DNA of 12,437 nucleotides from a virus (lineage: Duplodnaviria; Heunggongvirae; Uroviricota; Caudoviricetes): the IMG/VR virus record IMGVR_UViG_2671180415_000014; one strand, given 5' to 3'. The number at the start of each line of letters is the position of its first letter. Within the stretch, counting starts at the first letter, position 1. Shown here in pieces: positions 1 through 12,437 of the stretch. The notes below the pieces were generated by a model that was not told the DNA's origin, ran no database searches, and was given only the letters and a program-made list of their open reading frames with translations. The position numbers and the translations under genes were made by a program.

Positions 1-201
1 CTACATATAGTGCTATATACAGGGCTATATAACGATATATAGATGCTTGGTCACATGGTGTAACTATCAAACCACTTAACAATTTCCTACGTGAAAGTTA
101 GAAAGTGATGGTTACAGTTACCCTCCTAAAATCTTCATAGTTGATTCGGTTAGTTGGGCTTGTACCAACCCCTAATCAACCTCATAGCTCCTTCATAACC
201 A

Positions 202-227
202 GTCTTAAAAGGACTTCCTTTTGAGAC
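202..227. promoter_or_regulatory. 26-bp imperfect palindrome with 12-2-12 architecture (gtcttaaaagga-ct-tccttttgagac); candidate serine-recombinase crossover site or operator
   Basis: Read directly: the two 12-bp half-sites are reverse complements at 11 of 12 positions around a 2-bp centre, the same geometry as hix/gix/cix-type sites. Sequence similarity to canonical hix half-sites is only partial. Confidence 0.35.
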
Positions 228-232
228 ACTTT

Positions 233-262
233 CAACGTAACGGTAGAATGCACCCTCAAGTA
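233..262 (+). repeat. 30-bp direct repeat, copy 1 (caacgtaacggtagaatgcaccctcaagta), abutting the left edge of an N-masked block
   Basis: Exact 30/30 identity with 475-504. The copy ends exactly at the mask boundary, so the true repeat may be longer. Confidence 0.9.
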
Positions 263-474
263 NNNNNNNNNNNNNNNNNNNNNNNNNNNNNNNNNNNNNN
301 NNNNNNNNNNNNNNNNNNNNNNNNNNNNNNNNNNNNNNNNNNNNNNNNNNNNNNNNNNNNNNNNNNNNNNNNNNNNNNNNNNNNNNNNNNNNNNNNNNNN
401 NNNNNNNNNNNNNNNNNNNNNNNNNNNNNNNNNNNNNNNNNNNNNNNNNNNNNNNNNNNNNNNNNNNNNNNNNN

Positions 475-504
475 CAACGTAACGGTAGAATGCACCCTCA
501 AGTA
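475..504 (+). repeat. 30-bp direct repeat, copy 2, abutting the right edge of the N-masked block
   Basis: Exact identity with 233-262 at a 242-bp offset. Its left neighbour is masked, so the repeat may extend further. Confidence 0.9.
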
Positions 505-530
505 GTCTCAAAAGGTTGTTTTTGGATTAT
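505..530. promoter_or_regulatory. Second candidate recombination/operator site: a half-site (gtctcaaaagg) matching the 202-227 palindrome, followed by a degenerate partner half (tttttggattat)
   Basis: 505-515 is the exact reverse complement of 217-227. The partner half loosely resembles the GGTTTTTGATAA-type hix/gix half-site. It lies about 50 bp upstream of the recombinase start. Confidence 0.25.
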
Positions 531-566
531 GAGACAGCTAAGCTTATGAGACTAACTTTTGAGACT
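527..566 (+). repeat. Three direct copies of a tNtgagac motif (527-535, 545-553, 558-566) just upstream of the recombinase start
   Basis: Read directly. The same gagac/gtctc core occurs in the half-sites at 202-227 and 505-515. Possible protein-binding sites. Confidence 0.3.
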
Positions 567-581
567 TCTAAGGGGAACATT

Positions 582-1133
582 ATGGCGATACTTGGATATT
601 GCAGGGTGAGTACAGATGACCAATCCATCACTAACCAGCAAATGCAAATTGAAGAGGCAGGGTACAACATTGCTAAATGGTTCGCTGATGAAGCTGTCAG
701 TGGTTCTGTCAAAGCTTCTTTAAGAAACGGTTTCAGCAGTTTGTTAGCTTATGCACGAGAAGGTGACACCGTAGTTGTGGTAGCTGTAGACCGTCTTGGA
801 CGTGACACAATTGATGTGTTATCAACGGTTAAAGCGCTACAGGCTAAAGGTGTGACAGTTATCAGCCTTAGAGAAGGATTTGACTTATCAAGCGCTATGG
901 GTGAAGCAATGTTAGGCATTATGTCAACGTTGGCACAGCTTGAAAGAAGCTTGATAGCAGAGCGTAGAAAGGCTGGTATTGAACGTGCTAAAGCTGAAGG
1001 GGTACATATGGGAAGACCTGTAAAAGCTTCTTCAGAGGCTGTACAGATGCTTATTTCACAAGGTAAAACGAGGTTGCAGATTCAGGAAGAGCTAGGAATC
1101 TCTAGAGCAACTTATTACAGACTTGCTAAATAA
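582..1133 (+). CDS. Small serine recombinase, DNA invertase/resolvase family (Hin/Gin/Cin/Pin-like), 183 aa
   Basis: N-terminus MAILGYCRVSTDDQS carries the catalytic-serine motif; VDRLGRD motif present; C-terminal GRP...ISRATYYRLA matches the resolvase-type HTH. RBS aagggga sits 6-7 nt upstream of the ATG at 582. The six-frame ORF beginning at 516 is an upstream read-through. Confidence 0.85.
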   Translation: MAILGYCRVSTDDQSITNQQMQIEEAGYNIAKWFADEAVSGSVKASLRNGFSSLLAYAREGDTVVVVAVDRLGRDTIDVLSTVKALQAKGVTVISLREGFDLSSAMGEAMLGIMSTLAQLERSLIAERRKAGIERAKAEGVHMGRPVKASSEAVQMLISQGKTRLQIQEELGISRATYYRLAK

Positions 1134-1501
1134 GTTACTGAATAGTTACATGGATGTAGCTGATATTTGGCTTTTTTGCCAAGGGGGTCACATAGCTGGT
1201 GTGACGGGTACTAAACACGTATACATCATGAGGTAGATTCTACCGAATCAACTAGACAGATATTTTCGAAGATTCGGGGAAGATGAGATTCAAAGAGGGC
1301 TAGTCATTTTTTATAAAAATTTTCAGACTCTGAAAAGTTACTGTACAGAATATATACAGATATCTTTAAAGTATCTGTAAAAACTTTTAAGATAAAAGAT
1401 AGATATCCCAGAAAGGATATCCGTTTAGAAAACCTGTTAAGCATCTCTTAAAAGAGAGTAAACCTTGTCAAGAGTGATTGCAATAAAAATTTTTATTTCT
1501 T

Positions 1502-2164
1502 ATGTCAATTGAGCATATTTTAATCGGGAAGCATCATGGGGGTTCTGATTACTGGAGAACTCCATTTTTGTTATTTAAGAACTTACACCGTGAATTTATT
1601 TTCAGTCTAGATGGTGCTGCAACTGAGCATGACACGCTGTTACCACGATTCACCGATGATATAAGCCGTCAATCATGGGTTAGTGAAAAGGTCTTCTGTA
1701 ACCCGCCGTACAGCGATATTCCGTCGTTCCTCTTAAAAGCGTCTGAAGCGGATTTAGTAGCTTTCCTGATACCGCATAGAGCCAACACCAGCTACTGGCT
1801 TAGGCACATTTACAGCAATAACCACTGTCATGAAATCCGTATTCTTCATCGTGCAGTTAAATACCTTCCACCAGCAGGCCATAACGGGCTTACTATTCGT
1901 TCACCGTTTCCTAGTGCAGTCGTTGTTTTTAAAAAAGAACCACGTAAGCACGAAATTACACAGACGGTTTGCTGTGGTGACACGCTATTACCGTTAACCA
2001 TCATTAACAGAGGAGGCTTGAGAGGAAGACCCACCATTTACCCACCTGAGACGCTCGACAGCTTCATAAAACTATACAGGCAAGGAAAACCCATTAAGTG
2101 CATTGCAGATGCTCTCAGAATGCCTCTGAGCACGTCATACAGGATTGCTCAAAGGTTGAGCTAA
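1502..2164 (+). CDS. Phage-type DNA N6-adenine methyltransferase with a C-terminal resolvase-like HTH extension, 220 aa
   Basis: WRTP...FSLDGAAT...FCNPPYS contains the (D/N)PPY motif typical of small phage N6A methyltransferases. The C-terminal roughly 60 aa (GRPTIYPPETLDSFIKLYRQGKPIKCIADALRMPLSTSYRIAQRL) parallels the recombinase HTH (GRP...QGKT..IQEELGISRATYYRLA). No obvious Shine-Dalgarno before the ATG. Confidence 0.7.
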   Translation: MSIEHILIGKHHGGSDYWRTPFLLFKNLHREFIFSLDGAATEHDTLLPRFTDDISRQSWVSEKVFCNPPYSDIPSFLLKASEADLVAFLIPHRANTSYWLRHIYSNNHCHEIRILHRAVKYLPPAGHNGLTIRSPFPSAVVVFKKEPRKHEITQTVCCGDTLLPLTIINRGGLRGRPTIYPPETLDSFIKLYRQGKPIKCIADALRMPLSTSYRIAQRLS

Positions 2165-2546
2165 AATTCTCATAAATATGGTCATTTACAAGATAGGTGA
2201 TTCAGATATTAAGAAGTATCCCTGTGAACAATAAATGACCAATCAGTAATTATTCTGTGAAATAATTGTTGCAATTTATAATCACATCTGTTATAGTTTT
2301 TATATGGGGTGATAAAAGAACTCAGAACATTAAGAGGTTACAACGTTGGGAGGCGTCAGGGTATTGACAGATTTTCACGGCCTCTTATTCAATCAAGGCT
2401 TTTCCTTTTGCTGTTAATACTCGCGTAATCGCTCAGGCTTCTGAGTTCCTTTATCAGTCCATCTTCTAATTAATTCACTCCCTCTGGGGTTGGTCACTAT
2501 ACGTGGTCAGCCCTTTCTTTGTTTTATTTTTAAAAAGGAAAATATA

Positions 2547-3368
2547 ATGGAAAAATTCCACATGTTTGATGACCGTATTTATCAGATGACTAATGGCGTT
2601 AAAGCTGCCGACCGTATTATTTACACTGTCATGTTGAATGAACAAAAGTTTTATCACGATAAGGGGCAATATTATACCCCTTCATATGCTCATCTTGGTC
2701 AGTATGCTGGAATCACAAGAACATCCGTGATTGCATGTATGAAACAACTTGAGGCACATGGTTTAATCAAGAAAACTAACGTTGCAAGCAATCAGTGTGT
2801 TATTAAAGTTTATTCACTTGATGAAGTACCGGAGGTTTTAACAGAGCTTACAGCTAAGGAAGCCAGAAAGGCAAAGCTGGAGTCTAAAGTTACTCAGTCA
2901 GTCAAGAAAGATGACCCACTGAGTCAAAATTCTTTACCCACTGAGTCAAAATTTTTTACTCAGTCAGTCAAAATCTTTGACACGTATAATAACAGTAATA
3001 ACAAGAAAGAACTTATTAATAACAATAAAGAAGATGACTTTGAAGAAGAATATTTTAAGAAGGGAGCTTCGCTCTGTGATTCACATGAATGTGATTCTCT
3101 TGGTATTGAAGAGGCTATTAAAGAGACTGTTNNNNNNNNNNNNNNNNNNNNNNNNNNNNNNNNNNNNNNNNNNNNNNNNNNNNNNNNNNNNNNNNNNNNN
3201 NNNNNNNNNNNNNNNNNNNNNNNNNNNNNNNNNNNNNNNNNNNNNNNNNNNNNNNNNNNNNNNNNNNNNNNNNNNNNNNNNNNNNNNNNNNNNNNNNNNN
3301 NNNNNNNNNNNNNNNNNNNNNNNNNNNNNNNNNNNNNNNNNNNNNNNNNNNNNNNNNNNNNACTTTGA
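2547..3368 (+). CDS. Phage replication initiator (lambda O-like / replisome organizer) with winged-HTH N-terminal domain; 3' part N-masked
   Basis: RBS aaaaggaa then ATG at 2547. N-terminal domain with HTH-like segment YAHLGQYAGITRTSVIACMKQLEAHGLIKK. Iterons and an AT-rich tract lie inside the coding region as in lambda O. The frame runs into the mask at 3132-3361 and the in-frame stop is at 3366-3368; the true 3' end is uncertain. Confidence 0.6.
   Translation: MEKFHMFDDRIYQMTNGVKAADRIIYTVMLNEQKFYHDKGQYYTPSYAHLGQYAGITRTSVIACMKQLEAHGLIKKTNVASNQCVIKVYSLDEVPEVLTELTAKEARKAKLESKVTQSVKKDDPLSQNSLPTESKFFTQSVKIFDTYNNSNNKKELINNNKEDDFEEEYFKKGASLCDSHECDSLGIEEAIKETVXXXXXXXXXXXXXXXXXXXXXXXXXXXXXXXXXXXXXXXXXXXXXXXXXXXXXXXXXXXXXXXXXXXXXXXXXXXXXL
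2891..2978 (+). repeat. Four tandem 22-bp iterons (agtcaa core at 2900, 2922, 2944, 2966); putative replication origin
   Basis: Units tactcagtcagtcaagaaagat / gacccactgagtcaaaattctt / tacccactgagtcaaaattttt / tactcagtcagtcaaaatcttt, with an exact 22-bp period. Outer pair and inner pair are each near-identical. Confidence 0.8.
2979..3060 (+). promoter_or_regulatory. AT-rich tract immediately after the iterons; candidate DNA-unwinding element of the origin
   Basis: The run acacgtataataacagtaataacaagaaagaacttattaataacaataaagaagatgac is strongly A/T-rich and directly follows the iterons, the lambda ori-type arrangement. Confidence 0.5.
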
Positions 3369-3474
3369 TGATAGTGACGATGATTTTACTTTTACACCAA
3401 AAAAGAAAACTCACACCGAGCCAAAGAAAGAAAAAGTTAAAGTCAGACGTGTTTATGGTGGAGGAATGTTTTAA
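3362..3474 (+). CDS. 3' end of a coding frame emerging from the masked block (FDDSDDDFTFTPKKKTHTEPKKEKVKVRRVYGGGMF); either the C-terminus of the initiator or a gene starting inside the mask
   Basis: Open in frame +1 relative to the initiator frame. Its stop TAA overlaps the next ATG (TAATG at 3472-3476), typical translational coupling. The start is hidden by the mask. Confidence 0.35.
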
Positions 3475-3770
3475 TGAAAACTTATAATGGCGAGAGAAAA
3501 TACCGTGACTATTTACTCAGACGTTACAGCATTTCTCGTGAAGGTTACTTGATGAAAGATACTCACGGGGAAGTTTACCGGATTCGACCGAAGAAAGAAG
3601 GGAGGGATTATTATTTCGTCGATGATGTGACAGATTTAAAGATTGACGCTTTGAAGTTTGCGGTGCTGTATCATTACGATTTATGGGATTCAGTCCACCA
3701 GCTACGATTAAAAGACGGTGACCCCGGTAATCTGAGGGCCACCAATATTATCAAGGGAAAGTGCCGGTAA
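3474..3770 (+). CDS. Hypothetical protein, 98 aa
   Basis: ATG overlaps the upstream stop; ggtggagga lies 8 nt upstream. No family recognised by eye. Confidence 0.5.
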   Translation: MKTYNGERKYRDYLLRRYSISREGYLMKDTHGEVYRIRPKKEGRDYYFVDDVTDLKIDALKFAVLYHYDLWDSVHQLRLKDGDPGNLRATNIIKGKCR

Positions 3771-3779
3771 GGCCACCAG

Positions 3780-3956
3780 CTATTTATTTACTGAAATCTC
3801 TATCTCAACACGAAGAAGTTTAAGTCGAATTGTAAGCTTTGTCTTTTTTGTAATGACTCGATTCATAACGCAAAACACCAATAGCACAATAAATACCGCA
3901 AAGCCCAACGAGCTAAAACGATGAGATTCAATAATTGCTGTGAAAAAATCATGCAT
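3780..3956 (-). CDS. Small single-pass membrane protein, 58 aa, on the opposite strand
   Basis: Minus-strand ATG at 3954-3956 preceded by aaaggaaa. Hydrophobic stretch LGFAVFIVLLVFCVM followed by basic residues. Convergent with the upstream plus-strand gene. The longer ORF to 3986 would need a GTG start. Confidence 0.4.
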   Translation of the reverse strand: MHDFFTAIIESHRFSSLGFAVFIVLLVFCVMNRVITKKTKLTIRLKLLRVEIEISVNK

Positions 3957-4093
3957 TAATTTTCCTTTTGTGAAAGGAAACAGCACCTGTATCAGCCCCT
4001 ACAACCATAGTATCATGTAAATGAGGTACTGACAATATGTTAAATAGATGTTAAGATTGTAGTATGAGTAAGAGATTTAAGGAGATTTTTACA

Positions 4094-4384
4094 ATGACTC
4101 ACACAGTTACGCGCCTTTTGCCAGAGGCATTTGAACGACTGGCAGCAATCAAAGCCAAATATCCCGATATGAAGCACACAGCGCTTGTTGGGGAGATTTT
4201 AAAAGAGTCGGTAAACCTTAGCCCTTTCGATAACGTTAAGGGCGTCGCAGAGGGTTCTAAGGCCATCAGAATCACAACGGGCCAACTGGAACTACTCAAA
4301 GCACAGTCCGCAGTAGCAGGTTGCTCAATGATTCAGGTGTTAAGCGCTAAGGTCCATCAACTGGCGGATAGATTGGAGGTTTAA
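4094..4384 (+). CDS. Hypothetical protein, 96 aa (possible small DNA-binding regulator)
   Basis: Strong RBS taaggag 9 nt upstream of the ATG at 4094; stop overlaps the next start. The sequence is faintly ribbon-helix-helix-like, which is a weak impression only. Confidence 0.5.
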   Translation: MTHTVTRLLPEAFERLAAIKAKYPDMKHTALVGEILKESVNLSPFDNVKGVAEGSKAIRITTGQLELLKAQSAVAGCSMIQVLSAKVHQLADRLEV

Positions 4385-4605
4385 TGTGTTATAGGTTCCA
4401 ATATTCCACACTTGGCCGCCACCTAATCAGACAGAATTTAGCAGATGCTGAATTTGAAGATGTGACCCTCAAAGCAAACAAACGATTAAAACCCTCTCAA
4501 ATCCACCAGCTTAAACACGAATTAAAGCCACTGGTAATACTCGACTATAACGACCCTGAACAGCTTGAGCAGGGAATTAAGCTTATTTCTGAATGGGGTG
4601 CTTGA
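4384..4605 (+). CDS. Hypothetical protein, 73 aa
   Basis: TAATG stop/start overlap with the upstream gene, preceded by ggagg. Its stop TGA overlaps the next ATG at 4605. Confidence 0.45.
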   Translation: MCYRFQYSTLGRHLIRQNLADAEFEDVTLKANKRLKPSQIHQLKHELKPLVILDYNDPEQLEQGIKLISEWGA

Positions 4606-4847
4606 TGAAAACNNNNNNNNNNNNNNNNNNNNNNNNNNNNNNNNNNNNNNNNNNNNNNNNNNNNNNNNNNNNNNNNNNNNNNNNNNNNNNNNNNNNNNNN
4701 NNNNNNNNNNNNNNNNNNNNNNNNNNNNNNNNNNNNNNNNNNNNNNNNNNNNNNNNNNNNNNNNNNNNNNNNNNNNNNNNNNNNNNNNNNNNNNNNNNNN
4801 NNNNNNNNNNNNNNNNNNNNNNNNNNNNNNNNNNNNAACGTTTTTAA
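4605..4847 (+). CDS. Hypothetical protein, about 80 aa, almost entirely N-masked
   Basis: ATGA overlap with the upstream stop (4603-4607). The frame exits the mask and stops at 4845-4847. Content cannot be assessed. Confidence 0.3.
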   Translation: MKXXXXXXXXXXXXXXXXXXXXXXXXXXXXXXXXXXXXXXXXXXXXXXXXXXXXXXXXXXXXXXXXXXXXXXXXXXXXRF

Positions 4848-4939
4848 GCCCCTAATCAGGGTAACTTAGGGAATCGCCTTAAGTGGTCTAAAAAAGGGGT
4901 TAAAACGTCTTAGAATGCGATACAGGAAGGATTTTAAAA

Positions 4940-5245
4940 ATGAATTACCCAATGCAAATTATGGTTGACCAAGAAACCATGAATTGGTTGATTGACCTGA
5001 ACAGGTCGGGCTTTAATATCTATTTCATGCATTGTTTTGAAGCGTCAACGTATATTGACAAGCATATAATCAACGAAATTAAACTTGGTGACTATGTTCA
5101 CAAGCTGGAAGTAACAGACCCATACAATAAGCGCTTTATCATTGAAGAGTGCAATCGACTTGATTTAAGCCCTGAGCAATTATTGAAGCTGAATGTATTC
5201 TTGACCTATCAGAATGAATTAAACCCTTACAGCGAGGTGATGTAA
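4940..5245 (+). CDS. Hypothetical protein, 101 aa
   Basis: RBS aggaagg 9 nt upstream of the ATG at 4940. No family recognised. Confidence 0.5.
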   Translation: MNYPMQIMVDQETMNWLIDLNRSGFNIYFMHCFEASTYIDKHIINEIKLGDYVHKLEVTDPYNKRFIIEECNRLDLSPEQLLKLNVFLTYQNELNPYSEVM

Positions 5246-5322
5246 TGACACTCGTTATTCTCTGGATGACTTTAGGGTTATTTGTTGGTTGCTGGGTAGG
5301 TAATACGGTAAATAAGAATTGA
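5245..5322 (+). CDS. Very small hydrophobic peptide, 25 aa (MTLVILWMTLGLFVGCWVGNTVNKN)
   Basis: TAATG overlap with the upstream stop; gaggtg lies 5 nt upstream. A single hydrophobic helix-length segment. Too short for the supplied ORF track. Confidence 0.3.
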   Translation: MTLVILWMTLGLFVGCWVGNTVNKN

Positions 5323-5346
5323 TGTTACCAATCTGTTAAAAAGCTG

Positions 5347-5375
5347 TTGACAAATAACCTTAAGCATGAGATGAT
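5347..5375 (+). promoter_or_regulatory. Candidate sigma70-type promoter (TTGACA, 17-bp spacer, GATGAT)
   Basis: Perfect -35 hexamer at 5347-5352 and a 4/6 -10 at 5370-5375, in the intergenic gap upstream of the gene that starts within or near the next mask. Confidence 0.3.
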
Positions 5376-5382
5376 GGTAATA

Positions 5383-5399
5383 GGGAAGAGCAACTCTTC
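5383..5399. promoter_or_regulatory. 17-bp perfect palindrome ggaagag-caa-ctcttcc just downstream of the putative -10; candidate operator
   Basis: Read directly: 7-bp arms are exact reverse complements around a 3-bp centre. Confidence 0.3.
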
Positions 5400-5756
5400 C
5401 TGAATTAAACTATTAATCATTCTACATCAATGATAGTTATTCTGAAAGGTGCAATGCTTTTCGCTACATGACCTTTCAGGTNNNNNNNNNNNNNNNNNNN
5501 NNNNNNNNNNNNNNNNNNNNNNNNNNNNNNNNNNNNNNNNNNNNNNNNNNNNNNNNNNNNNNNNNNNNNNNNNNNNNNNNNNNNNNNNNNNNNNNNNNNN
5601 NNNNNNNNNNNNNNNNNNNNNNNNNNNNNNNNNNNNNNNNNNNNNNNNNNNNNNNNNNNNNNNNNNNNNNNNNNNNNNNNNNNNNNNNNNNNNNNNNNNN
5701 NNNNNNNNNNNNNNNNNNNNNNNNNNNNNNNNNNNNNNNNNNNNNNNNNNNNNNNN

Positions 5757-6439
5757 AAGTGATTGATAGCTTCAGTGACTGGTCGCCACAGACTGAACAT
5801 CCAGCTATCACTATTCAGCGTAAAGAGCATGACAAGCGTATTGAGCTTGAGCAATCGCTAAAGATGTCACCAAAAACAACCATCTTTGTGTCTCCTGAGC
5901 CTCAAGAGATGCCTGATATTTGCAAGAGTGAAGCATTACTTGAGCTTGAAAAGAAATATTACCAACTGCTGAAAGAACAGCGCCTTAGATTAGATGACGC
6001 TTACAGCAAAGTTACCTTGATGCAATCAGCTATTGAGCCGTCAGAATTTGAGATTCAGGATGAATTGTCACAGAAACCATTTGTCTATTACCAATACGAA
6101 GATAATGATGGTTTTGGTACTTTTCAAGAAAACGTCGCAGCCGTGATTAGTAGTCTTCCTGCTGGACATCGAATTGTGAAGATGGTTAAGGCATCAAGAG
6201 GTGCTGGTCAGTTTATTTACATGACTAATAAGAGCGATGAAGAACTCGCTGAAATTGCTAGACAGAACATCTTGGCATCACGTAACAAGCAACTTGATAA
6301 TGTTAAGTTGTATCTCTCAAGAGAGCTTCAGGCTATGAAAGAGCTTGTGAAAGAATATGAAGATGCTAAGAAGATTGCTATGCAGGCTGATATTGAGCAG
6401 CTTACGAAGATTTCTAGCAAATATGCAAAGGCTATTTAA
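5757..6439 (+). CDS. Hypothetical phage protein; only the C-terminal 227 aa are visible, the start is in or before the masked block 5482-5756
   Basis: Long open frame with coding-like composition ending at TAA 6437-6439. First gene after the putative promoter. No family recognised. Confidence 0.55.
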
Positions 6440-6463
6440 TTAATAATTAAAAGGTGGTGGTGA

Positions 6464-6670
6464 ATGATTGATTTAACAGAACGCTATGAGCTTATTAAAG
6501 CAATTAGTGAACGATTGAAAGAACAACCCAACAAACCAAAACGAATCAAATCATTCACCTCCTCTAAGCAAAAGAATAGAATCAGGAAAATAGCTAAGTG
6601 GTGTCTTGATAAATTACCAAGTGATTGTCAGATTGTTGGTGAAGATGGTAATTATTATCTGGTTAGGTAA
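6464..6670 (+). CDS. Hypothetical protein, 68 aa
   Basis: RBS aggtgg 6 nt upstream of the ATG at 6464. Basic, lysine-rich middle region. Confidence 0.45.
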   Translation: MIDLTERYELIKAISERLKEQPNKPKRIKSFTSSKQKNRIRKIAKWCLDKLPSDCQIVGEDGNYYLVR

Positions 6671-6768
6671 CAAGATTGGTTGGGTGAAAATCTACGGGAG
6701 AGATTATCGAGTGATATCGGTAGTCTTTCCCTTTTTCGTATATGAACACTTAAAGAGGTGAAACATGA

Positions 6769-8949
6769 ATGAGCAAATTCACAGTTGATAGTTTTATCGT
6801 TGAACTTAGTTTCAGTGAAAACGTTATTAAGGGCTTGCAAAGAGTTGAAAAGGCAGCTTTGCAGTCAGCACAAAGAATTGAACGCAATTTGAATAGAGCG
6901 TTTAAGGTCGATACCAAGCAACTTGACAGCAATCTGACAAGTTCTTTAGGGCAGCTTGAAAGGAAGTTTAATAAGACCTTTGACAAGATTGAGCAGAGAG
7001 CAAGAAGCACAAAAGCATTTCAGTTTGCCACCAGATTTAATGACACTGTTAATCCTCCAAAACAATCAAGGCAACCACGAATTAGCGGAAACAGAGCAAT
7101 CACAGCAGCGCATAGCGTGAATATGTCTAAGCTTGGTGATATTAATCCGCTGATGGCTAAAATGTTTAAAGCACAGTATTACAGCTTAAGCGGTAAGGCT
7201 GGTAATATTGGAAGTGAAAAGTTTAACGCTGAACTTGCAAAATTAAATCAATCTCTTCGTGAAACGTTGAATAAACTCAGGTCACAGACAAAGACCGCCA
7301 GCATTAACAATACAAGCGACGCATTTAATAATCTTGCAAGCAATGCGATTAAATTATCTGGTGCATTTTACTCTGTGATGGGTGCTCTTAACGCTTACAA
7401 GGCCATTATGAATGCAGGTCTTAAACGAGATTCCGCACAGAGAGCCGCTAAGTTTGTACTTGGTGATAAAGCATCTGAAGCTGAGGTATTTATTCGAAAT
7501 TTAGCAGACAAGACAGGTCTTAATATCTCTGAAGGGCTATCAAGCTACGCTAAGTTTGCAGCAGGTGCTCAGGGTTCTATGTCACAGGAACAGACACAGG
7601 AGCTATTTGGTAATGCAACGGCTATGAGTCGCTTAATGGGGCTTTCTAACGATGAGCTAAACGGCATTTTGAGAGCATTTGAGCAGATGGCGAGCAAGGG
7701 CAAGATTCAGGCTGAGGAATTACGTGGGCAGTTAGGTGACCGTATGGCTGGTGCATTTAAGCTATTCGCTGAAGCATTGGGTATGACTGCTACAGAGCTT
7801 GATGCAGCCATGAAAAACGGGAAGGTACTTTCCGCTGATACTCTCCCTAAAGTCGCTAAACAGATGGGCTTGATGATTGATAAAGCGGGTGGCTGGGCTG
7901 AAGTCACTAAGAGCACTCAGACAGCTTTAGGTAAGTTAGCAAACAATTGGGATGATACGATGGTGAAAATCTTCTCAGGTTCACAGGATGAGCTAAACGG
8001 CTTCTTATCCAGCCTGAGTAACCTGCTTAGTGAAATGGGGATGAGTTCTTCTATCGCTGGTGATGCTATCGGTGGACTTATCGACATGCTTAAAGCTGGT
8101 GTAGATGATATTCGCGTATTCAATAACACCATTGAAGGCTGGATTTTACAGACTAAGAAGTTCTATTACAGCCTTGATGACACTAAACGAAAACTACTTG
8201 ATGAAGTCGGTGATGGTTTTATCAACTTCGTCAAAGGTCTTGCTATAGCGTTATCTGCAAAGACGCTATTCAGTGCTACTACAGGGGTTATGAACCTGAC
8301 AAGAGCAATCACAACGTTAGGTACAAGAGCTAATCAGGTGGCTGGTCAGGTAGCTACTGGTAAAGGTGGTGGAAAACTGAAAGGTGTAGCTGGTGGTGTA
8401 GGTAGTGCTCTTGCAATTGGTTATGCTGATGACGGTTATGAAACAGCGTTAGCATTAGCTTCAATGATTCCACAAATCAGAGGCGTCACTCTTGGTTTAT
8501 ATGCATTGAAGAAAGCACTGGATTTTATGAATCAGGAAGTAGTCAAAAACGCTAATATGCATCCGTCTGGGGTAGGTGTGGGTAGTGACTTTAATCCCGT
8601 GTATTCTGGTGACCCTAATAAACCGAATATGATTAACGAAGGATGGAGTAGAATTTTTAGTTCAATGGGTGAATTGTTTAACAATGCCACAATGAATATT
8701 GCAAGATTCAATCATCCAGAGTTAAACAACATTAAGCAAGATTCAGCATTAACGAGTGCAGATATTCAGGGTCTGAGGGATGAAATTAGTGCTTTGAGTA
8801 AGCGTATTCAGGAGCCAGTGAAAGTTTCACTTGGTGGTCAAGTTGTCGTTCGACCAGATGAACCATCTTTCTTTACTTTCAATCAATCAGCTAATGACCA
8901 GTTCACGCAGGATATGCTCTTAAGTTCAAGCTATCCAGAGGAAGAATGA
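6769..8949 (+). CDS. Phage tail tape measure protein, 726 aa
   Basis: RBS agaggtg 8 nt upstream. Long helical N-terminal part; the segment LRAFEQMASKGKIQAEELRGQLGDRMAGAFKLFAEALGMTATELDAAMKNGKVLSADTLPKVAKQMG matches my recollection of the conserved tape-measure domain; glycine-rich hydrophobic segment GGGKLKGVAGGVGSALAIGYA. Size fits a tape measure. Confidence 0.75.
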   Translation: MSKFTVDSFIVELSFSENVIKGLQRVEKAALQSAQRIERNLNRAFKVDTKQLDSNLTSSLGQLERKFNKTFDKIEQRARSTKAFQFATRFNDTVNPPKQSRQPRISGNRAITAAHSVNMSKLGDINPLMAKMFKAQYYSLSGKAGNIGSEKFNAELAKLNQSLRETLNKLRSQTKTASINNTSDAFNNLASNAIKLSGAFYSVMGALNAYKAIMNAGLKRDSAQRAAKFVLGDKASEAEVFIRNLADKTGLNISEGLSSYAKFAAGAQGSMSQEQTQELFGNATAMSRLMGLSNDELNGILRAFEQMASKGKIQAEELRGQLGDRMAGAFKLFAEALGMTATELDAAMKNGKVLSADTLPKVAKQMGLMIDKAGGWAEVTKSTQTALGKLANNWDDTMVKIFSGSQDELNGFLSSLSNLLSEMGMSSSIAGDAIGGLIDMLKAGVDDIRVFNNTIEGWILQTKKFYYSLDDTKRKLLDEVGDGFINFVKGLAIALSAKTLFSATTGVMNLTRAITTLGTRANQVAGQVATGKGGGKLKGVAGGVGSALAIGYADDGYETALALASMIPQIRGVTLGLYALKKALDFMNQEVVKNANMHPSGVGVGSDFNPVYSGDPNKPNMINEGWSRIFSSMGELFNNATMNIARFNHPELNNIKQDSALTSADIQGLRDEISALSKRIQEPVKVSLGGQVVVRPDEPSFFTFNQSANDQFTQDMLLSSSYPEEE

Positions 8950-8961
8950 TTTAACGGTGTT

Positions 8962-9014
8962 CTACGTGAATAAAGCAAAGTTAATACCCACACCAAAAAT
9001 TATTTTTCACGTAG
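8962..9014. promoter_or_regulatory. Inverted repeat ctacgtgaa ... ttcacgtag (9-13 bp arms, about 35-bp spacer) after the tape-measure gene
   Basis: Read directly. Not followed by a T-run, so not a canonical intrinsic terminator. Confidence 0.3.
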
Positions 9015-9044
9015 CTCACGCTTAACAGAGAAAATACATATATA

Positions 9045-9850
<806 letters not shown>

Positions 9851-10000
9851 TTTGGCATCCATCTCCGATCACAGTTTGGCATCACAATCGATCACGATTT
9901 GGCATACTTCCGATCATTGATTGGAATTCGCCAGTCACTCCGGGAATTAACTCTTTTCACCACAGTCTCCATTGCCGTGTTTAAACCAGTGGAGACGTCA

Positions 10001-11566
10001 ATGTCCAAAAAGAGAAAATCCAGGAGCACTATGGAAACTTGTTTTAAGATCCTTCAGCTCAAGTTCGATAAGAAGCTGACTAACCGTTGTATCGGACTGA
10101 CGTTACACATCAGCGCCTCAACCGTTTTTGAGGTTCTTGCCCGCTTCAAAGCCTCTTCTCTGTCATGGCCATTACCTGCGGATATATCCCATGACACGCT
10201 GGAGAAACTCATTTTCCCGCCCAAAGACACCTCTGCGTCAGAGCTTGTTATGCCTGACATGCTGTACTTCGATACGGAAATGAGAAAACCTGGCGTGACG
10301 CGCCAACTGTTGTGGATGGAATACAAGGCACAGGCGGGTGACAAAGCGATGGGATACTCACACTTCTGCCGTTGCTACCGGAAGTGGAAAAAAACGCGAC
10401 GCCTCTCCATGCGACAGGAGCATCGTGCTGGCGAAAAGCTCTTTATCGACTTCTGTGGTCCTACGGTCCCTGTTATTAATCCGGACACCGGAGAGATACG
10501 CCGCGTGGCAATCTTCGTGGCTGTAATGGGGGCGTCCAACTATACCTATGTTGAAGCGTGCGAAGGTCAGGACATGATGTCATGGTTAAATGCCCACAGC
10601 CGTTGCCTGACCTTCCTGGGCGGCGTACCGAAGCTGCTCATCCCCGATAACCTCAGAAGCGCAGTGAAAAAAGCCGATCGCTATGAGCCTGTCATCAACG
10701 ACAGTTATCAGGCGCTGGCTGAGCACTATGGCACGGTTATTATCCCGGCCCGCCCGCGCAAACCTAAAGATAAACCAAAAGCAGAAAACGGCGTCCTCAT
10801 CGTCGAGCGATGGCTTCTTGCCCGCATCCGTAATGAAACCTTCCACACGCTCAGGGCGCTGAATGCACGCCTTCGGGAGTTGCTGACGGACATGAATAAC
10901 CGACCAATGAAGGGATACGGTAATCAAACCCGCGCAGAACGCTTCCGCATGCTGGATGCACCAGCACTCTCTCCGCTGCCTCTGGAGCCTTATGAATACA
11001 CGGAATACAAAGCCGTGAAGGTTGGCCCTGACTACCACGTTGAATATGCCCGTCACTGGTACTCCGTTCCACACGAACTGGTCGGTCAGCGTCTGTCACT
11101 GAAGGTGGGGCAGTCGGTGGTACAGCTCTGGCACAAGGGGCAGTGTGTGGCGCAACATCCGCGCAGCACACATGAATATAAACACACAACCAATCCGCTT
11201 CACATGCCAGAACGCCACCGGCGGCATGGGACATGGACACCGGAACGCCTTATCGAGCAGGGAAACCGTACAGGTCCGTCCACAGGCCGGGTGGTTGAAT
11301 CCATGCTGAAAGCCAAACCCCATCCGGAGCTGGCTTACCGTGCAGTCCTGGGTCTGCTGGCACTTCAGAAAAAATACGGCCCGGAACGGCTGGAAAAGGC
11401 CTGTTACGTTGCCCTGCACTATAACGCCCCGGACAGACGCTTTATCGACAATCTGCTGCGTCATCATCGGGATAACGTTGAGCTTCCGTTATCCCGCCAG
11501 GGCGAACAACATCCGGCATATGCTTCAGAGCATGAAAACCTGCGTGGTCCTGGCTACTACCACTGA
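10001..11566 (+). CDS. istA: IS21-family transposase IstA, 521 aa
   Basis: RBS ggaga 5 nt upstream of the ATG at 10001; N-terminal HTH region; long DDE-type core; followed 16 bp later by istB. The ORF-track start at 9899 lies inside the terminal repeats and is unlikely. Confidence 0.85.
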   Translation: MSKKRKSRSTMETCFKILQLKFDKKLTNRCIGLTLHISASTVFEVLARFKASSLSWPLPADISHDTLEKLIFPPKDTSASELVMPDMLYFDTEMRKPGVTRQLLWMEYKAQAGDKAMGYSHFCRCYRKWKKTRRLSMRQEHRAGEKLFIDFCGPTVPVINPDTGEIRRVAIFVAVMGASNYTYVEACEGQDMMSWLNAHSRCLTFLGGVPKLLIPDNLRSAVKKADRYEPVINDSYQALAEHYGTVIIPARPRKPKDKPKAENGVLIVERWLLARIRNETFHTLRALNARLRELLTDMNNRPMKGYGNQTRAERFRMLDAPALSPLPLEPYEYTEYKAVKVGPDYHVEYARHWYSVPHELVGQRLSLKVGQSVVQLWHKGQCVAQHPRSTHEYKHTTNPLHMPERHRRHGTWTPERLIEQGNRTGPSTGRVVESMLKAKPHPELAYRAVLGLLALQKKYGPERLEKACYVALHYNAPDRRFIDNLLRHHRDNVELPLSRQGEQHPAYASEHENLRGPGYYH

Positions 11567-11582
11567 CAGAAGGAACAACCGT

Positions 11583-12338
11583 ATGAGTGATAATCTGTTA
11601 AACAAACTGACCCAACTGAAACTCCCGGCGATGGCCGGGAGCCTGATACGGCAACGGGAAACGCCTCAGACTTACGACGAACTGTCGTTCGAGGAAAGGC
11701 TGACACTGCTGGTTGATGACGAGCTTCTGAGCAGAGAAAACAGTCGTGTGGCACGGTTGAGAAAAAATGCCTGCCTGAAATATCAGGCAACACCGGAAGG
11801 GCTGCGTTATCCGGCCTCAAGAGGTCTGCGGGCTGAACAGATGAGGGAACTGCTGAACGGCCACTACATAATCCACAGGAAAAACCTACTGATAACCGGT
11901 CCGACAGGATGCGGTAAGAGCTGGATAGCCAATGCGCTGGGCGAACAGGCATGTCGACAGAAATACAGCGTCCGGTACTGTAGAACCGGGCGATTACTGG
12001 AACAGTTGGCTCAGGGACGTGTTGATGGCAGTTGGCTGAAATATCTGAAACAGTTGCAAAAAATACAGGTTCTAATCCTGGACGATCTGGGGCTGGAACA
12101 GTTAAGTAACGCCCAGTGTAATGACCTTCTGGAGATCACAGAGGATCGTTACGGACAAAGCAGCACGATAGTGGTAAGCCAGTTCCCGGTAGATAAATGG
12201 CATGGTCTGATGGAGAACCCAACAACAGCAGATGCCATCCTGGACAGACTGGTACATAACTCACACAGAGTGGTCCTTCAGGGAGAGTCCCTGAGGAAAA
12301 ATCCCCCGACAGTGGAAAGCAGCGAAAAAACGAGTTAA
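11583..12338 (+). CDS. istB: IS21-family ATP-binding helper protein IstB, 251 aa
   Basis: Walker A GPTGCGKS and Walker B VLILDDLG; RBS aggaa 7 nt upstream. The ORF-track start at 11340 overlaps istA in another frame and is unlikely. Confidence 0.85.
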   Translation: MSDNLLNKLTQLKLPAMAGSLIRQRETPQTYDELSFEERLTLLVDDELLSRENSRVARLRKNACLKYQATPEGLRYPASRGLRAEQMRELLNGHYIIHRKNLLITGPTGCGKSWIANALGEQACRQKYSVRYCRTGRLLEQLAQGRVDGSWLKYLKQLQKIQVLILDDLGLEQLSNAQCNDLLEITEDRYGQSSTIVVSQFPVDKWHGLMENPTTADAILDRLVHNSHRVVLQGESLRKNPPTVESSEKTS

Positions 12339-12364
12339 AAAGCGGTAGAAAAAGTTAAGTTCCC

Positions 12365-12430
12365 GGTTGATCGAATGGATGCGAATCGCTGATCGAACTT
12401 CGATGCCAATCCGTGATCGAATAGAGCGGA
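12365..12430 (-). repeat. IS right-end repeats (tgatcgaa / atgccaat units), inverted relative to the left-end repeats
   Basis: Three copies of tgatcgaa at about 24-bp spacing, reverse-complementary to the cgatca...ttggcat units at the left end. Truncated by the window end. Confidence 0.6.
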
Positions 12431-12437
12431 ATACGCA

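Follow-up and report, generated by a model that had tools for sequence, protein, structure and literature searches.

We present an analysis of a 12,437-nucleotide stretch of DNA, the IMG/VR virus record IMGVR_UViG_2671180415_000014, which is referred to below as the window and which carries a compact series of phage-related genes. Read along the + strand, these are a small serine recombinase, a Dam-like DNA methyltransferase, a replication initiator, six small open reading frames (ORFs; h1 to h6), an intact gene for a tape measure protein (TMP), a broken gene for a tail-tube initiator and, at the right end, an insertion sequence (IS). Our preferred reading, which we regard as probable rather than secure, is that the window holds most of a decayed integrative island of c.11 kb, and that this island is a satellite of virulent Felix-O1-like myophages (Ounavirinae).

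Two tail genes related to those of Ounavirinae

Between the end of the initiator gene at 3474 and the start of the TMP gene at 6769 there are ~3.3 kb that contain the six small ORFs only, as the original prediction had described. Its observation that head, terminase and lysis genes are absent was also borne out, with 0 matches to capsid, portal, terminase, holin or endolysin families in window positions 1-9800. The absence of an integrase holds within 2165-8949, but a small serine recombinase gene (516-1133) lies just outside that interval and a large one is present in intact relatives. Similarly, what had been called a tail module does consist of tail genes, but there are only two of them, the TMP gene and the broken tube-initiator gene.

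The TMP gene (6769..8949, + strand) is intact and encodes 726 aa, with matches to PF20155 (2e-21) and phrog_4036 (4e-93); the phage protein has 735 aa. In tblastn and blastn comparisons with the phage garuso, overall identity to the Felixounavirus TMP is 29%. The first c.30-45 aa are 79% identical to the phage sequence (96% in a sister lineage), the central TMP_3 domain is 63-73% identical, and the last c.12 aa (..LLSSSYPEEE) are essentially those of the phage. No closer phage TMP was found among 50,697 phage records. In a cryo-electron microscopy study of phage Bas63, the C-terminal 25 residues of TMP contact the hub and the puncture apparatus. The island TMP appears to keep the surfaces that dock to the helper tail, the remainder having diverged.

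The tail-tube initiator gene (9107..9799, + strand), with a Dit_like fold, is a pseudogene in the window; in relatives it matches PF21821 (2e-20) and phrog_3721 (2e-130), and intact copies encode 257-262 aa. It is the homologue of Bas63 gp18, which the same cryo-electron microscopy study identified as the tail-tube initiator seated on the baseplate hub, and of garuso_119, to which it is 75% identical at the amino acid level. Patches of the nucleotide sequence are 87-95% identical to the phage, which argues for recent recombination between the islands and Ounavirinae phages. Megablast against the 50,697 phage records returned Felix-O1-like phages almost exclusively, and within 6748-9565 only; phages with related TMP or tube-initiator genes were confined to Ounavirinae. 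The tube initiator of the sister lineage is closest to those of Suspvirus and Mooglevirus phages, which suggests that island lineages track different Ounavirinae genera.

When 19 head, tail and baseplate proteins of garuso (garuso_108-126) were compared with the island by tblastn, two matched, the TMP and the tube initiator. Furthermore, Pfam and PHROG scans together with tblastn found no sheath, tube, hub, wedge or fibre gene in the island. With these two as the only structural genes recognised, the island lacks most virion and lysis genes and would need a helper. Ounavirinae are virulent myophages of 86-90 kb without an integrase, and for this reason the island cannot be an Ounavirinae prophage. 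Between h6 and the TMP gene there is a terminator-like hairpin (6696..6740, + strand) with a 15-bp stem and a T-run; this match to the terminator consensus suggests that the two tail genes are expressed apart from the early operon.

A recurrent chromosomal island

The gene order of the window recurs as a unit of ~11.1-11.3 kb across several hundred genomes of E. coli, Shigella, Salmonella and E. albertii (related islands are designated below by L numbers). In intact copies the order is small serine recombinase, Dam-like methylase, initiator, h1-h6, TMP, tube initiator and, on the opposite strand at the right end, a large serine recombinase of 506-547 aa with Resolvase, Recombinase and zinc-ribbon domains. 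DNA resembling window 1-9800 was found in many complete E. coli chromosomes. Among 5426 complete E. coli genomes, TMP-type DNA was present in 426 and tube-initiator DNA in 386 (~7-8%), and the 420-565 places occupied by the island, at most five per genome, included none on a plasmid. A plasmid origin was considered and rejected, as megablast against 72,556 plasmids matched the IS end only. In a scan of species-representative genomes, relatives were found in E. albertii and S. flexneri only. The E. coli carriers of an intact island include strains ECONIH2 (NZ_CP014667), 94EC (NZ_CP047576) and AL.H8 (NZ_CP082349).

Chromosomal genes directly adjoin the intact relatives on both flanks, and head or packaging genes, whose presence immediately outside the window was to count against the original prediction, are not found there. 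At least four chromosomal insertion sites were seen for the family: inside yecE (L004, L005), between ymdF and wrbA (L006, L009), at the tonB start codon (L002, L028, L038, L040), and between mdtG and lpxL (L003, L031).

Pairwise ratios of nonsynonymous to synonymous substitution were 0.12-0.38 for TMP, 0.02-0.13 among islands for the Dit_like tube initiator, and 0.27-0.51 for h5; all three genes are under purifying selection. Because these ratios are low, we regard h5, TMP and the tube initiator as working genes rather than prophage remnants in decay. Moreover, each of the lineages examined retains an intact TMP gene and an intact tube-initiator gene, both subject to purifying selection, and this includes lineages in which h5 is 30-40% identical to the E. 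coli type.

Attachment sites and a possible circular form

As judged from its boundaries, the island is a discrete integrative unit flanked by attachment (att) sites, with the large serine recombinase as the predicted agent of insertion. Islands of the tonB-site type have an identical 13-bp core, CAATGACCCTTGA, in attL and in attR, and the start codon of tonB falls within it. This core is located at L028 4432-4444 and 15685-15697 and at L030 3743-3755, and it regenerates the ATG and first codons so that tonB is left intact. The attL of the island in the window would be ~300 nt outside the left end of the window, since window 1-120 corresponds in alignment to L004 c.5437-5560 and the island of L004 has its left boundary at ~5144.

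The two ends of Logan contig L030 (SRR22802630) overlap by 27 nt, so that the contig forms a circle of 11,253 bp free of chromosomal sequence; its attP consists of the right arm of attR and the left arm of attL, placed on either side of CAATGACCCTTGA. The same attP junction is present in L032 and L033 (ERR11042405 and SRR22802629), making three sequencing runs in all. The junction would represent the excised circle of a sister lineage, a tandem array being less likely. Several other 11-kb contigs from metagenomes and isolates were examined as possible circles and rejected, since they proved to be integrated islands whose contig ends fall at att sites or terminal inverted repeats. An attP junction of the window's own lineage was not found.

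Replication initiator and putative origin

The initiator gene (2547..3474, + strand) matches PHROG replication-initiation families (7e-12), with weak Pfam matches to DnaD_N and helix-turn-helix (HTH) families. Its product has a winged-helix/DnaD-like N-terminus and an acidic C-terminus, and the middle is masked (3132-3361). The gene contains an iteron repeated four times with a spacing of 22 nt (2890-2971), and after it a region rich in A+T (2987-3032). At the corresponding position, the alleles of other islands have iterons of different sequence (L004 7643-7711; L006 8557-8647), in 3-4 copies at 22-23-nt spacing. Because iteron sequence co-varies with initiator allele, we take the islands to be functional replicons. 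The island has its own putative replication initiator and a putative origin inside the initiator gene. In the lambda-O-type arrangement the origin is located within its initiator gene, and the island layout, with iterons inside the initiator gene, resembles that of lambda O.

On either side of the masked block at 3132-3361 the initiator is read in different frames, with 928 nt from ATG to stop; its closest homologue, from strain RM9088, bears a frameshift in its annotation. Provided that masking preserves length, the window copy may have a frameshift as well. A second terminator-like hairpin is found at 2486-2514, just before the initiator gene.

Phage-like DNA upstream of the first operon

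The first operon is preceded by phage-like non-coding DNA (1252..1441, + strand), as seen in local alignments to garuso and a database match (E 3e-10). Within it, 1363-1441 is 80-84% identical to part of the divergent intergenic region that separates the two structural-gene clusters of Ounavirinae (80% to garuso 57722-57799), and matches 253 Ounavirinae records and nothing else (E 3e-10), while 1252-1348 is 70% identical to garuso 50018-50115, part of a 1.65-kb repeat-rich non-coding region. This DNA upstream of the methylase-initiator operon is also conserved across island lineages. Parts of the 80-nt element of the island recur in the other divergent intergenic region of the phage (garuso 12075-12312), and in L009 the upstream region is similar to other phage intergenic repeats (garuso c.4400-5870). 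The alignments suggest that island and phage intergenic regions share regulatory motifs.

Just upstream of the phage-like 80-nt element are overlapping palindromes at 1341-1379 (CTGTACAG; TACAGATA-N9-TATCTGTA), which are kept in all islands and absent from the phage; they are a possible operator for an island regulator. The 1.65-kb non-coding region of garuso (48952-50603) is dense in CTTGTTAG, CTGTTAAG and TATACAG-type repeats. A CTGTTAAG-like motif was considered as a pac or ori signal and set aside, its enrichment being suggestive in the 1.65-kb region of the phage and unconvincing in the island.

Left arm, small recombinase and methyltransferase

The left non-coding arm of the island (1..515) contains a masked block (263-474) that is flanked by a 30-nt exact direct repeat, CAACGTAACGGTAGAATGCACCCTCAAGTA, at 233-262 and 475-504; relative to L006, a duplication of c.242 bp upstream of the small recombinase gene is apparent in the window. 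The small serine recombinase gene (516..1133, + strand) is of the resolvase/invertase type with a C-terminal HTH (PF00239, 1.6e-41; phrog_125 DNA invertase, 6.6e-59), and its true start is likely the ATG at 582. It is present in most relatives and missing from L004. The module occurs as unrelated alleles in either orientation (L002, L009, L028, L031, L040 and L041 versus the window, L003, L005 and L006). An invertible segment served by this recombinase was ruled out, as islands of opposite orientation carry a different allele; the variation is one of module replacement and not of one segment inverting. The next gene (1502..2164, + strand) encodes a Dam-like N6-adenine DNA methyltransferase with an NPPY motif, fused to a resolvase-type HTH (PF05869, 4e-15; HTH_7, 2e-4; phrog_111; PADLOC orphan methyltransferase).

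The early/replication module is entirely different in some islands (L005 8697-10014, L009 3051-4567, L028 4562-9084), which retain the half of the island comprising h4, h5, h6, TMP, tube initiator and integrase. The alternative module of L005 includes a small HNH endonuclease, and L028 has a 221-aa protein without known function at the position of the methylase of other islands.

Small ORFs and masked blocks

The six small ORFs are all on the + strand. The first, h1 (3474..3770, 98 aa), is conserved in L002-L006, and h2 (4064..4384, c.96 aa, likely start 4094) is conserved in relatives, as are h4 (4940..5245, c.101-107 aa) and h6 (6464..6670), a basic protein of 67-68 aa encoded immediately upstream of the TMP gene. 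Between them, h3 (4384..c.4860, partly masked at 4613-4836) is a variable accessory slot in which the gene differs between islands. The island-specific h5 (c.5732..6439, c.235 aa) has its first codons in the masked block at 5482-5756. Since the small ORFs are uncharacterised, the absence of a repressor, which the original prediction had stated, cannot be asserted.

In GenBank h5 is labelled "transposase", which is a mislabel. Its relatives form 3076 clusters at 90% identity, all of them from Escherichia (including E. albertii), Shigella or Salmonella; distant full-length relatives comprise ~5 clusters among 1.8 billion representatives, and belong to islands from other enterobacteria that are built in the same way. 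An AlphaFold2 model of h5 (pLDDT 79) has a long coiled-coil hairpin and a small alpha/beta domain, with fold matches to generic coiled coils only. We regard h5 and the small basic h6 as candidates for a scaffold, chaperone or inhibitor.

Four masked runs of N, 941 nt in total, interrupt the window. At these positions unmasked relatives have non-coding DNA, the acidic C-terminus of the initiator, the variable small ORF, and the h4-h5 intergenic region with the first codons of h5. Since the relatives carry no capsid gene there, masking does not hide one, contrary to a concern raised earlier; the blocks are also too short to conceal head, terminase or lysis genes. In L004 the counterpart of the block at 5482-5756 has, in the h4-h5 intergenic region (10424-10517), an inverted repeat with 29-nt arms that are 90% complementary and a 36-nt loop. 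Known RNA families gave 0 matches in the window.

State of the window copy

The frameshifted tail gene and the IS insertion noted previously are real, and mark decay of this copy of the island rather than of a prophage. The tube-initiator gene has lost 74 bp at 9253/9254, which puts it out of frame, and ISSso4, an IS21-family element with istA and istB (9800..12437, + strand), interrupts it six codons short of the stop, at the point occupied in relatives by the 3' end of the large serine recombinase gene. The integrase position of the window copy lies beyond ISSso4. The element is 100% identical to annotated ISSso4 copies, and such identical copies occur in E. coli chromosomes and plasmids. 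It is only ~67% identical to the ISEc12 that interrupts the related islands L002 and L003; IS21-family elements have repeatedly inserted in this type of island, at different points. The window ends at the right end of ISSso4, as a draft-assembly contig would. Because the tube initiator is broken, the integrase side is cut by ISSso4 and the initiator is possibly frameshifted, the window copy is probably immobile by now. The description "degraded" fits this copy, not the kind of element.

Discussion

A satellite-like entity was among the possibilities in the original prediction, and it is the best supported of them; it can now be made specific as an island resembling the PLEs of Vibrio cholerae and tied to Felix-O1-like phages. 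On this reading, helper infection would activate the island through its phage-like regulatory DNA, whereupon the island would excise and replicate from its own origin with parts of the host or phage replisome. The island TMP and tube initiator would then replace those of the phage at the centre of the baseplate hub, giving tails built on an island-encoded core, and island DNA would be packaged in helper capsids and transferred. Phage progeny would be reduced, and the bacterial population would be protected by the island.

Several points weigh against a satellite. Helper induction, packaging and transfer are all proposed from sequence, and the phage-like DNA upstream of the first operon is a candidate promoter only. 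Neither a small terminase nor a capsid-size-redirection gene was found, nor a recognisable pac site, and an 11-kb island would have to be packaged by an 86-kb phage. The six small ORFs between initiator and TMP have 0 assignments in Pfam, PHROG, NCBIfam or PADLOC. For the attP junction the sister lineage is the sole source, and a tandem duplication could yield such a junction; searches of IMG/VR and JGI metagenome contigs for the exact attP patterns of the tonB and yecE types gave no match. The IMG/VR matches to the island are prophage calls from isolate genomes, and the other 11-kb metagenome contigs that were checked carry chromosomal flanks.

The alternative that survives best, which we consider unlikely and yet worth keeping in view, is a mobile anti-phage defence island that is not packaged and spreads otherwise, the TMP and tube initiator acting as dominant-negative decoys in tail assembly that lead to non-infectious particles. 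Blocking of tail assembly is an established form of defence, as with Tai (PMC11364771) and the Rta of PLE11, and decoys would account for a TMP that keeps only the phage interaction ends beside a phage-like tube initiator. The family scans found no packaging-related gene, and the window copy has an intact TMP despite its broken tube-initiator gene. A pure defence cassette, however, needs no initiator and origin, no large serine recombinase of multiple specificity and no circular form, and among PADLOC defence models the orphan methylase is the sole match in the window. Defence and satellite transfer coexist in PLEs, so that this explanation overlaps with the satellite one.

Improbable, in our view, is an integrating element of plasmid-like or mobilisable kind, with no part in phage parasitism, into which chance recombination brought two tail genes of Ounavirinae. 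Chance capture fits poorly with two tail genes that are intact and selected in all lineages and that track different Ounavirinae genera, or with the conservation of the phage-like regulatory DNA as well. The plasmid/lambda-O-like initiator with iterons, the recombinases and the methylase would suit such an element, as would the lack of known function for the majority of island genes, but family scans of island proteins and relatives gave 0 relaxase, oriT or conjugation matches, and none of the 420-565 E. coli places is on a plasmid.

A degraded or mosaic prophage, or a tailocin-like remnant stripped of head, packaging and lysis genes, as first proposed, is very improbable: the frameshifting deletion, the IS insertion and the possibly frameshifted initiator of the window copy speak for it, but intact relatives in many genomes and at different sites hold the same 11-kb content in the same compact order with intact ORFs, directly bounded by chromosomal genes and under purifying selection, the related phages are virulent and without integrase, and a replication module is present where sheath, tube, hub, wedge and fibre genes are not.

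Relation to known satellites

Returning to the satellite, the island may be described as an enterobacterial version of the PLE-type strategy, although we do not file it as a PLE. The likeness, assessed from published descriptions of PLEs, begins with size, as both are small chromosomal islands (11 kb here, ~18 kb for PLEs) of roughly 1/7-1/8 the genome length of the helper. Both have a large serine recombinase for integration, an initiator and origin of their own, a virulent contractile-tailed helper (here a candidate), and an island-encoded TMP and baseplate-core protein related to those of the virulent myophage helper. In PLEs the TMP, a tail chaperone and the hub protein are all island-encoded, and the TMP and baseplate-core protein are selectively incorporated into chimeric tails (PMC12987554); a 2025 preprint on Mycolicibacterium satellites makes the same point. 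The differences begin with host and helper, which are Vibrio cholerae and ICP1 for PLEs and enterobacteria and Ounavirinae here. The second tail protein of PLEs is the hub protein BhuB, whereas that of the island is a tube initiator with a Dit_like fold; the PLE TMP is ~20% identical to that of ICP1 overall, whereas the termini of the island TMP are near-identical to those of the phage. Additionally, the island has no recognised tail assembly chaperone, and has a Dam-like methylase and a small serine recombinase.

Like PICIs, cf-PICIs and P4-like elements, which are integrative, replicative and helper-dependent islands of Enterobacteriaceae of 7-20 kb, the island is small and appears to depend on a helper. 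Those elements differ in having tyrosine integrases, AlpA, primase-replicases, capsid-directed genes (terS, Sid/Psu, capsid sets) and temperate helpers; island proteins gave 0 Pfam or PHROG matches to tyrosine integrase, AlpA, primase-replicase, terS or capsid-directed families. Putative tmp genes have been noted in some cf-PICIs (PMC12987554, Nature 2026), which also encode capsids, whereas the island encodes none. PICMIs are similar in being small satellites of virulent vibriophages without capsid-remodelling genes and different in encoding no tail proteins, as far as their abstract indicates (PMC10803314). EPIPs, satellites of Mycolicibacterium, share a serine integrase and a TMP, but also have a small terminase, a scaffold and capsid-related genes and act on a prophage (PMC12822802). 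The defence proteins Tai, Tab and Rta likewise hit the tail or TMP stage of the phage and are carried on mobile elements; unlike the island proteins, they are small inhibitors and not homologues of tail proteins.

A satellite that swaps in its own TMP was described in a 2025 preprint and in Nature in 2026, and no other TMP-encoding satellite is reported according to that paper (PMC12987554). Published PLE-like elements are confined to vibrios. Our literature search found no description of the present island family; its coverage of subscription journals was thin, so an earlier account is possible. A published study reports that the virulent Escherichia phage vB_EcoM_DE7 and E. coli chromosomes have exchanged 544 bp at a gene annotated as TMP, where PHASTER found no prophage and where that paper recognised no element. 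This exchange locus is probably an island of the present family.

Significance

Most known satellites of strictly virulent phages come from vibrios (PLE, PICMI). We put at about even the chance that the islands are the first such family in Escherichia, Shigella and Salmonella, a PLE-like one that senses Ounavirinae, rebuilds the tail core of its helper and cuts phage yield. If this is true, it would correct the annotations "transposase", "phage baseplate protein" and "tape measure protein" in what seems to be a prophage remnant, and would account for the puzzling exchange of genes that links virulent Felix-O1-like phages to E. coli chromosomes regarded as "prophage-free". Tail-swap biology would become testable in E. 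coli, the foremost genetic model, with ready helpers (Felix O1, the BASEL phage Bas63 and many biocontrol phages). The finding would also bear on phage therapy and biocontrol with Felix-O1-like phages, as the islands would be a widespread and unrecognised determinant, carried by ~7-8% of complete E. coli genomes, of susceptibility to phages used in typing, biocontrol and therapy.

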